Shown: positions 19,054-20,826, counted from the stretch's first letter. The stretch: 64,000 nucleotides of DNA from Escherichia coli (GCF_044647545.1 NZ_CP172818.1); one strand, 5' to 3'. Numbers and translations are program-made. The notes: generated by a model from the sequence alone, not told the origin.

Positions 19054-20826
19054 GTGCGATTATTTGCTCAATTAAGCTGGTATTTCCGTCGGGAATGGCG
19101 TCGCTATCTCGGGGCTGTCGCCTTGCTTGTCATTATCGCGATGCTGCAACTGGTTCCGCCAAAAGTGGTTGGTATTGTTGTCGATGGCGTGACAGAACAA
19201 CACTTTACTACCGGGCAGATCCTGATGTGGATCGCCACCATGGTGCTGATTGCCGTTGTGGTTTATCTCCTGCGTTACGTCTGGCGCGTATTGCTGTTTG
19301 GTGCGTCTTATCAACTGGCTGTTGAACTGCGTGAAGATTATTACCGCCAGCTAAGCCGGCAGCATCCTGAGTTTTACCTGCGTCATCGCACGGGTGACCT
19401 CATGGCTCGTGCGACCAATGACGTCGATCGCGTCGTGTTTGCCGCCGGAGAAGGGGTGCTGACGCTGGTGGATTCACTGGTAATGGGCTGCGCTGTGTTG
19501 ATTATGATGTCTACGCAAATTAGCTGGCAGTTGACCTTATTTGCCCTGTTGCCGATGCCAGTGATGGCGATCATGATCAAGCGCAACGGCGATGCCTTGC
19601 ATGAACGCTTTAAGCTGGCACAGGCGGCGTTTTCCAGTCTTAATGACCGCACCCAGGAAAGCCTCACCAGTATCCGCATGATCAAAGCTTTTGGTCTGGA
19701 AGATCGTCAGTCGGCGTTATTTGCCGCGGATGCCGAAGATACCGGCAAAAAAAACATGCGGGTGGCGCGTATTGATGCTCGTTTCGACCCGACCATCTAT
19801 ATCGCGATTGGTATGGCGAACTTGCTGGCGATTGGCGGCGGTAGTTGGATGGTGGTACAGGGCAGTTTAACGCTGGGCCAGCTCACCAGTTTTATGATGT
19901 ATTTAGGTCTGATGATTTGGCCAATGCTGGCGCTGGCATGGATGTTTAACATTGTGGAACGTGGCAGCGCGGCGTATAGCCGAATTCGTACCATGCTGGC
20001 CGAAGCGCCAGTCGTTATTGATGGTAGTGATAAGGTGCCAGAAGGTCGTGGTGAACTGGATGTGAATATTCGCCAGTTTACGTATCCGCAGACTGACCAT
20101 CCTGCGCTGGAAAACGTCAATTTCGCCCTGAAACCCGGTCAGATGGTAGGTATTTGCGGGCCGACTGGTTCCGGCAAAAGTACCCTGTTGTCGCTCATTC
20201 AGCGTCATTTCGACGTCAGCGAGGGGGATATCCGCTTTCATGATATTCCTCTGACGAAGTTACAACTCGATAGCTGGCGTAGCCGCCTGGCGGTAGTTAG
20301 CCAGACACCGTTCCTTTTTTCCGACACCGTAGCGAACAACATCGCGTTGGGTTGCCCGAATGCCACCCAGCAAGAGATTGAGCATGTCGCGCGGTTAGCC
20401 AGCGTGCATGACGATATTTTGCGTTTACCGCAAGGTTACGATACAGAAGTGGGCGAGCGCGGCGTGATGCTTTCCGGTGGGCAAAAACAGCGTATCTCCA
20501 TTGCTCGTGCGTTATTAGTCAACGCGGAAATCCTCATCCTTGATGATGCGCTTTCGGCAGTAGACGGACGCACAGAGCACCAGATCCTGCATAACCTGCG
20601 CCAGTGGGGGCAGGGAAGGACGGTAATCATCAGTGCCCATCGCCTTTCGGCACTGACGGAAGCCAGTGAAATTATTGTGATGCAGCACGGACATATCGCC
20701 CAGCGTGGCAATCATGATGTGCTGGCACAACAAAGCGGCTGGTATCGCGATATGTATCGCTATCAACAACTGGAGGCGGCGCTCGACGACGCTCCGGAAA
20801 ATCGCGAGGAGGCCGTCGATGCGTAG
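19054..20826 (+). CDS. mdlA: ABC exporter half-transporter (TMD-NBD fusion)
   Basis: 590 aa; N-terminal TM domain, C-terminal NBD with Walker [10 protein letters not shown] and LSGGQ signature. Confidence 0.95.

Follow-up and report, generated by a model that had tools for sequence, protein, structure and literature searches.

A conserved -8 overlap at the mdlA-mdlB junction of Escherichia coli, in a gene pair predicted to encode the two halves of a heterodimeric ABC exporter

Introduction

Heterodimeric ABC exporters such as TM287/288, LmrCD, EfrCD, and TmrAB are assembled from unlike half-transporters that are encoded by adjacent genes and that together form one impaired ATP site. In such heterodimers, the impaired site combines the Walker motifs of one chain with the signature of the other. 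These four exporters belong to subfamilies different from that of MdlAB. Each ATP site of an ABC dimer is made up of the Walker A/B motifs of one chain and the signature of its partner (PMC4046567), and exporters with one degenerate nucleotide-binding site have been described (PMC4046567, PMC5216877). Serratia marcescens SmdAB falls in the same NCBIfam equivalog families as MdlAB and its two half-transporter genes likewise lie side by side, in the same order; the reported identity of SmdA to MdlA is 79% (PMC11408624), and SmdAB, as cited in PMC3522447 and PMC11408624, is reported to be a heterodimeric multidrug pump. For E. coli MdlAB, in contrast, the heterodimer is predicted from sequence and the drug spectrum is not clear-cut; tetracycline resistance was not reproduced for E. 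coli MdlA (PMC11408624).

Bacillus subtilis BmrCD, a solved heterodimer (PDB entries 7m33 and 8t1p), has a motif asymmetry identical to that of MdlAB. Wild-type BmrC/YheI carries ILILDD and LSGGQ, the same as MdlA, and wild-type BmrD/YheH carries ILILDE, as in MdlB, together with a deviant signature, LSSGE (LSVGQ in MdlB). The two systems nevertheless differ, in that (i) they are distantly related, (ii) they are regulated differently, and (iii) about 90 additional residues follow the first helix of BmrD and are absent from MdlB.

With regard to its gene junction, mdlAB shares the geometry of the -8 nt class (NTGNNTGA-type; PMC6728339, PMC10666635, and the review by Brown & Wade 2025, PMC12548453), which is the third commonest overlap class (PMC10666635). 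As in that class, a Shine-Dalgarno (SD) sequence lies inside the upstream gene and the products are predicted subunits of one complex; the mdlA stop codon, however, is TAG or TAA, whereas the motif as usually written contains TGA. Among E. coli gene pairs spaced at -8 to +10 nt, 30.4% encode heteromeric complexes, as against 6.8% of distant pairs, and termination-reinitiation is described for junctions within -8 to +6 (PMC10666635). The same work gives a typical distance of about -3.4 nt for syntenic COG1132-COG1132 pairs (2371 gene pairs), and mdlA/mdlB is listed in supplementary file 3 of Huber et al. 2023 as 'NGHB#430 -8', CMPLX yes (PMC10666635). The -8 overlap of mdlA and mdlB is therefore already known, both from RefSeq annotation and from that listing, and it is an ordinary feature.

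Reporter tests showed four of five E. coli overlapping pairs to be coupled, with SD removal cutting reinitiation by 60-100% in those four, and strong SDs were reported to be important for reinitiation (PMC6728339). The overlapping bioBF pair, however, is translated entirely de novo, and another tested overlapping pair showed about 40% de novo initiation (PMC6728339). In the available parts of Huber et al. 2019/2023, the tested pairs have -4 or -1 overlaps, with no -8 pair and without mdlAB among them, and our literature search found no published tests of mdlAB coupling.

The mdlA-mdlB junction and its annotation

We analyzed a window of 64,000 nucleotides from an E. coli chromosome, in which the genes and junction elements of interest are as follows:

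18566-19024, plus strand: decR (cyuR/ybaO), a regulator gene (RefSeq), reported as co-transcribed with mdlAB
19034-19056, plus strand: weak mdlA initiation region with a poor SD and a GTG start, 29 nt after the decR stop
19054-20826, plus strand: mdlA CDS, SmdA-type ABC half-transporter of 590 aa, GTG start and TAG stop (ORF, RefSeq, NF008055)
20806-20812, plus strand: mdlB SD, GAGGAGG, 6 nt before the ATG, formed from the MdlA codons Glu-Glu-(Ala)
20819-20826, plus strand: 8-nt overlap ATGCGTAG, with the mdlB ATG at 20819-20821 and the mdlA TAG at 20824-20826
20819-22600, plus strand: mdlB CDS, SmdB-type ABC half-transporter of 593 aa, ATG start (translation, RefSeq, NF008056)

Read directly from the window, the end of mdlA and the start of mdlB share the 8 nt ATGCGTAG at 20819-20826, within the context ...gaggaggccgtcgATGCGTAGtttt...; positions 20806-20830, which span the SD and the overlap, read GAGGAGGCCGTCGATGCGTAGTTTT. 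The two frames differ by one base, MdlA terminates in ...REEAVDA*, and the mdlB start codon begins 5 nt before the mdlA stop codon on the same strand, as is characteristic of the -8 class. RefSeq entry NZ_CP033850.1, to which the window shows a single mismatch up to position 40099, carries the same two CDS (mdlA, 19054-20826; mdlB, 20819-22600) and the same overlap. The 8-nt overlap given in the preliminary description is thus confirmed by the agreement of sequence and RefSeq coordinates.

Its gene identities are likewise borne out, by RefSeq as well as by the NCBIfam equivalogs SmdA and SmdB. MdlA scored 1262.7 bits against the SmdA model NF008055 (cutoff 845), aligning from residue 1, and MdlB scored 1183.6 bits against the SmdB model NF008056 (cutoff 746), with residues 1-583 matching profile positions 1-583; cross-matches of the two models to the wrong partner reached only about 232-236 bits. 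With both equivalogs above cutoff and the gene ends conserved in 81 of 81 sequences (see below), both frames are genuine genes whose ends have been placed correctly. In RefSeq, the neighborhood on the E. coli chromosome reads cof-decR-mdlA-mdlB-glnK-amtB-tesB, and a cyuR-mdlAB operon has been proposed (PMC11408624). An AsnC-type regulator likewise lies upstream at the locus of a distant orthologue (L083).

Conservation of the overlap and its surroundings

An out-of-frame stop shortly after an ATG means little on its own; its weight comes from correct gene ends and from persistence across genomes. The overlap was compared across orthologues, as the preliminary description had proposed. From 378 SmdAB-family loci detected, we compared the mdlB loci of 80 species-representative genomes (Escherichia, Citrobacter, Enterobacter, Klebsiella, Raoultella, Kosakonia, Buttiauxella, and others; MdlB identity, 84-99%), which together with the window gave 81 sequences. 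The 8-nt overlap, in the form RTG-NNT-AR, is present in every one of these Enterobacteriaceae sequences (81/81). The mdlB start codon within it is ATG in 78 and GTG in 3, and the mdlA stop alternates between TAG (40) and TAA (41). An exchange between TAG and TAA is the sole change at that stop position that still yields a stop.

This constancy is confined to a short module. The synonymous positions -14, -5, -2, and +8 near the junction vary freely, with three or four alleles each, and the C-terminal tail of MdlA contains indels of 3-24 nt, all of which lie 5' of the SD; the SD, ATG, and stop, in contrast, keep constant distances from one another, including the 6-nt spacer, throughout the Enterobacteriaceae comparison. 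Within the species, the junction was found in 5376 of 5426 complete E. coli genomes.

A direct homologue search returned only relatives of at least about 87% identity, so more distant orthologues were reached through 50%-identity cluster representatives and their contigs. An orthologue with 67% identity (L085) retains both an 8-nt overlap, ATGAATAA, and GAGGAGG. Among orthologues of 44-53% identity, three have a 4-nt ATGA overlap, one has a 1-nt overlap (-1), and another, from a 22%-GC genome of 529 kb (endosymbiont-sized), has a 5-nt gap (+5). The A-then-B gene order held in every case, with SDs that are mostly of the GGAG type, and these -4, -1, and +5 junctions all fall within the -8 to +6 window of PMC10666635. 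Taken together, the comparisons indicate that the overlap is more than chance and that its -8 form is a trait of the Enterobacteriaceae plus one closer relative, whereas the occurrence of -8, -4, -1, and +5 junctions with a constant A-B order shows that the closeness of stop and start is ancient.

From the mdlA stop to the mdlB start

Junctions of the -8 class typically, though not obligatorily, have an SD within the last part of the upstream coding sequence, and mdlA contains one. The predicted duplex of the mdlB SD with the 3' end of 16S rRNA (-11.8 kcal/mol) is the strongest across the 3.5-kb mdlAB mRNA. Its bases G-G-A at -11 to -9 are invariant (81/81), as is the G in the third position of the first Glu codon (81/81); the second SD codon (-10 to -8) is GAG in 76 of 80 sequences, GAA in 2, and GAT in 2. 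Since the GAG fraction at Glu codons elsewhere in mdlA is 0.41, this bias indicates selection at synonymous sites. The mdlA initiation region is far weaker, with an SD duplex of -4.6 kcal/mol in the window (median over the 81 sequences, -4.3 kcal/mol) and a start codon that is GTG in 74 sequences, TTG in 7, and ATG in none. A weak mdlA start beside a strong mdlB site fits a design in which the mdlB site would catch almost all ribosomes that terminate at mdlA; it fits independent initiation equally well.

An 8-nt overlap does not by itself imply coupling, as the uncoupled bioBF overlap illustrates (PMC6728339). The reading that we favor, and regard as probable, is that of an ordinary conserved -8 junction in an SmdAB-family operon, which encodes the halves of a heterodimer and in which SD-assisted termination-reinitiation is the most likely route to MdlB. 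On this reading, a ribosome ending at the mdlA TAG would sit directly over the mdlB start, GAGGAGG would retain that ribosome or its 30S subunit on the mRNA, and the retained ribosome would re-initiate 5 nt upstream, at the mdlB ATG. The synthesis of MdlB would then follow that of MdlA, itself begun at a weak GTG site, and some de novo initiation of mdlB, on mRNA kept open by ribosomes translating mdlA, would probably contribute. We infer the coupling of mdlA and mdlB, which the preliminary description had taken from the overlap, as well as its mechanism and a 1:1 output, from this arrangement, and consider all three plausible. The two proteins are nearly absent from the proteome data of Mori et al. 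2021, with MdlA present in 3 samples and no sample yielding MdlB.

The overlap could instead be real but serve compaction, with mdlB initiated mainly de novo at its own SD and ATG and the overlap persisting, without setting stoichiometry, since any change would affect two reading frames. The strength of the mdlB site relative to the mdlA site, with its 6-nt spacer and ATG, is as expected if mdlB were initiated in this way, as are the lack of a masking structure at its start (see below) and the precedents of bioBF and of the pair with about 40% de novo initiation (PMC6728339). Such an account sits less well, however, with an overlap whose length shifts by lineage (-8, -4, -1, +5) and yet stays within a few nucleotides, as if proximity were selected. 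It also runs against the coupling of four of the five E. coli overlaps that were tested and the reported importance of strong SDs for reinitiation (PMC6728339). Moreover, a strong mdlB site free of constraint would, beside the weak GTG/TTG site of mdlA, yield an excess of orphan MdlB, with its deviant signature. We therefore regard predominantly de novo initiation as rather unlikely.

Coupling could also come about through RNA unfolding, if a hairpin with upstream mdlA sequence hid the mdlB SD and AUG and were opened only by ribosomes translating mdlA. In the minimum-free-energy fold of the E. coli sequence, a segment of mdlA lying about 20-35 nt upstream does pair with the SD and AUG. This junction fold, however, is no better than that of shuffled sequences (z = +0.57; of 200 shuffles, 137 reach an equal or better fold); across 25 diverse orthologues, RNAalifold detected no shared structure and no covariation at the junction; and the putative 5' arm sits in the indel-rich, variable tail of MdlA. 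Further, the energy required to open positions -20 to +10 around the mdlB start averages 12.7 kcal/mol, compared with 15.1 kcal/mol at random internal positions, and was under the internal mean in 20 of 24 species. An ordinary fold, no consensus structure, and an opening energy that is not raised together do not support a dedicated masking hairpin, and we consider control by unfolding improbable; with no conserved hairpin of this kind, nothing visible blocks de novo initiation at mdlB.

A stricter form of termination-reinitiation can be proposed, tentatively, from the weak and never-ATG mdlA start, the strong mdlB SD, and the fixed -8 geometry: mdlB may be translated essentially only by ribosomes that have just finished mdlA. 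Although we hold so strict a hand-over to be doubtful, it would, if true, deliver MdlB beside nascent MdlA at the membrane, leading to co-translational assembly of the heterodimer in cis, and it would functionally mimic the fused A-B single-chain transporters of other lineages.

Complementary ATP-site motifs in MdlA and MdlB

MdlA and MdlB each carry PF00664 and PF00005, the arrangement of TMD-NBD half-transporters, and are encoded by adjacent, co-directional genes; each is only about 23-28% identical to the orthologues of the other. The ATP-site motifs that distinguish them are as follows:

20470-20484, plus strand: MdlA ABC signature LSGGQ, canonical, residues 473-477
20530-20547, plus strand: MdlA Walker B ILILDD, residues 493-498, with Asp498 in place of the catalytic Glu (half of a degenerate ATP site)
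22247-22261, plus strand: MdlB ABC signature LSVGQ, deviant, residues 477-481, which pairs with the Walker A/B motifs of MdlA at the degenerate site
22307-22324, plus strand: MdlB Walker B ILILDE, canonical, residues 497-502, with the catalytic Glu E502 (half of a consensus ATP site)

In MdlA, the D-D form of Walker B and the LSGGQ signature each occur in 80 of the 81 sequences, with one sequence lacking a motif match in either case; distant orthologues have D-D or D-N in Walker B. In MdlB, both the LSVGQ signature and the D-E form of Walker B are present in 81 of 81, and distant orthologues have LS[AI]GQ as the signature. Because, in an ABC dimer, a signature and the Walker motifs opposite it come from different chains, the defects of MdlA and MdlB are predicted to fall in one composite, degenerate site, and the second composite site, comprising the Walker motifs of MdlB and LSGGQ of MdlA, is fully canonical. 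A homodimer of either protein, in contrast, would have two defective sites of one kind.

The closest solved relatives of the two proteins point in the same direction. Full-length PDB searches with alignments ranked BmrC/YheI first among solved relatives for MdlA (E = 2e-146) and BmrD/YheH for MdlB (E = 1e-117), the two being chains C and D within shared entries (7m33 and 8t1p). Searches with the NBD alone brought up mainly eukaryotic ABCB proteins and told little, and no MdlAB structure was found in the PDB. The 108 fused relatives (1100-1400 aa) include 54 in which an A-type half precedes a B-type half and 46 that are symmetric (P-glycoprotein-like), with none in the reversed order; the A-then-B fusions mirror the mdlA-mdlB gene order and thereby lend Rosetta-stone support to a heterodimer. 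The prediction that MdlA and MdlB pair as the unlike halves of a single type IV ABC exporter, a heterodimer in which one ATP site is degenerate and the other matches the consensus, is thus well supported. As far as sequence can tell, the heterodimeric exporter suggested in the preliminary description holds up, through complementary motifs and through BmrCD as the best solved relatives.

The opposite has been proposed from E. coli Keio deletions, among which mdlA mutants were more sensitive to cefazolin and vancomycin and mdlB mutants were not, and the authors suggest that MdlA and MdlB act independently or that MdlA is active alone (PMC11408624, 2024). Were this so, the proteins would work as homodimers, or MdlA by itself, and the overlap would reflect merely the co-transcription of paralogous pumps. 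Complementation in that study, however, failed to restore resistance, and polar or junction effects of the single-gene deletions on the overlapping partner were uncontrolled (PMC11408624). Moreover, an MdlA homodimer would have two sites without a catalytic Glu and an MdlB homodimer would have two deviant signatures, whereas the asymmetry between the two proteins is kept from the Enterobacteriaceae to 44%-identical orthologues and fused A-B proteins and matches that of the solved BmrCD heterodimer. We accordingly give little credence to functional independence. Another study handles mdlAB as one unit (PMC11026601).

Start codon of mdlB

The geometry described above depends on the mdlB start, and comparative evidence indicates that mdlB is translated from the ATG at 20819, within the last three codons of mdlA. 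Upstream candidates (ATG, ATG, and GTG at -102, -105, and -114) were ruled out by in-frame stops in many orthologues, and downstream candidates (TTG at 20891 and ATG at 20909) by the conservation of MdlB residues 6-25 and by the alignment of MdlB residues 12-53 with BmrD residues 5-46. A 627-aa NCBI protein (P0003) was considered as a possible N-terminal extension and rejected; it starts with MRSFSQ, and its extra length lies further downstream. The TRAINSPOTTER start-site data contain no mdlA/B entries.

That the annotated start is wrong, with the true one upstream (20705, 20714, or 20717) or downstream (20891 or 20909) and no 8-nt overlap, is scarcely credible: in this strain, the mdlB frame does extend without a stop as far back as 20705 and includes ATGs at 20714 and 20717, but (i) in about one quarter of the orthologous loci, an in-frame stop lies upstream of the mdlB ATG with no other start available, (ii) sequence change upstream of 20819 follows the mdlA frame, mdlB-frame variation at third positions sets in just past the overlap, and residues 6-25 are conserved, (iii) the conserved SD fits 20819 only, and (iv) the NCBIfam profile and BmrD both align at the N-terminal residues of MdlB.

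For the locus itself, these results have little significance beyond confirming that mdlA and mdlB are correctly annotated. What they add is modest, namely the strict conservation of an SD-ATG-stop module, the exclusion of alternative mdlB starts, the absence of a masking structure, and motif and fusion evidence for an obligate heterodimer. The motif analysis also argues against the suggestion that MdlA acts alone, which bears on how knockout phenotypes are read in this poorly characterized efflux system. As a clean, conserved -8 example, with strong sequence indications that the two products form an obligate heterodimer, the mdlAB junction might serve as a natural test case for how tight -8 coupling is relative to -4 and -1 coupling, and it could also reveal whether a 1:1 ratio in the synthesis of membrane-protein heterodimers is set by coupling.

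Within the first 50 kb of the window, ybaB/recR (-1, TGATG) is the sole further case of co-directional genes that overlap. The other complex-encoding pairs in the same 50 kb, namely cyoAB, acrAB, glnK-amtB, and hha-tomB, are spaced at 21-29 nt.

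Translation initiation sites of mdlA and mdlB

The two half-transporter genes begin at the following sites:

19034-19056, + strand, mdlA initiation site, with a weak Shine-Dalgarno (SD) sequence and a non-ATG start
20806-20821, + strand, mdlB initiation site, with an ATG start and an SD sequence of -11.8 kcal/mol

Among the 81 Enterobacteriaceae sequences (the window and 80 species-representative loci), the mdlA start codon is GTG in 74 and TTG in the remaining 7, with ATG in none, and the mdlA SD sequence is weak (median of -4.3 kcal/mol). The mdlB site, by contrast, provides the strongest anti-SD match of the entire operon (-11.8 kcal/mol), and this difference between a weak mdlA and a strong mdlB initiation site is kept throughout the Enterobacteriaceae.

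Fused relatives and half-transporter types

Single-chain fusions are frequent among the ∼1200-residue relatives (proteins P0127-P0270, encoded outside the window). Defining an A-type half by a Walker B of D-D/N together with an LSGGQ signature, and a B-type half by D-E together with a deviant signature, we found an MdlA-type N-terminal half followed by an MdlB-type C-terminal half in 54 of the 108 fused relatives, and the opposite order in none of them. For the Bacillus subtilis heterodimer, the Walker B Glu-to-Asp replacement has been assigned to BmrD (PMC4046567); however, the deposited wild-type sequences carry ILILDD in YheI/BmrC and ILILDE in YheH/BmrD. The chains in 7m33 are Q/Q mutants rather than wild type.

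In two gene calls from single Logan contigs (P0002 and P0004), the MdlA C terminus continues directly into MdlB via a frameshift a short way 5' of the mdlB ATG, at the equivalent of window ∼20794-20819. These are either assembly errors or else rare natural A-B fusions, and they show that one 1-nt frameshift close to the junction would suffice to fuse mdlA and mdlB.

Atypical or missing junctions

A 529-kb, endosymbiont-sized genome of 22% GC retains mdlA-mdlB between lon and dnaX (L082:723-4270). Here, a 5-nt gap replaces the overlap, there is no clear SD sequence, and the Walker B of the A subunit reads D-N.

In Citrobacter amalonaticus AUH_CA_2023_1 (locus L014), mdlA is 1772 nt long and out of frame, while its mdlB match exceeds those of all other loci by ∼200 nt; the two genes nevertheless meet in an unbroken 8-nt junction. 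These anomalies probably reflect assembly indel errors or a disrupted locus.

The junction query lacked any match in 49 of 5426 E. coli genomes. In E. coli DH1Ec169 (match H20, NZ_CP012127.1, 471010-471074), the match ends at query position 65 (window ∼20834) and a second match lies elsewhere in the same genome, with the locus apparently rearranged immediately past the mdlB start.

Other features within the window

Besides mdlA-mdlB, ybaB/recR is the only co-directional gene pair to overlap within the first 50 kb of the window; its junction (∼44416) is a TGATG with a 1-nt overlap. From the RefSeq annotation of the matching strain (NZ_CP033850.1), from whose record the window coordinates are offset by ∼2 nt past position 40100, we also note:

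∼43367-43431, inside dnaX, DnaX programmed frameshifting element
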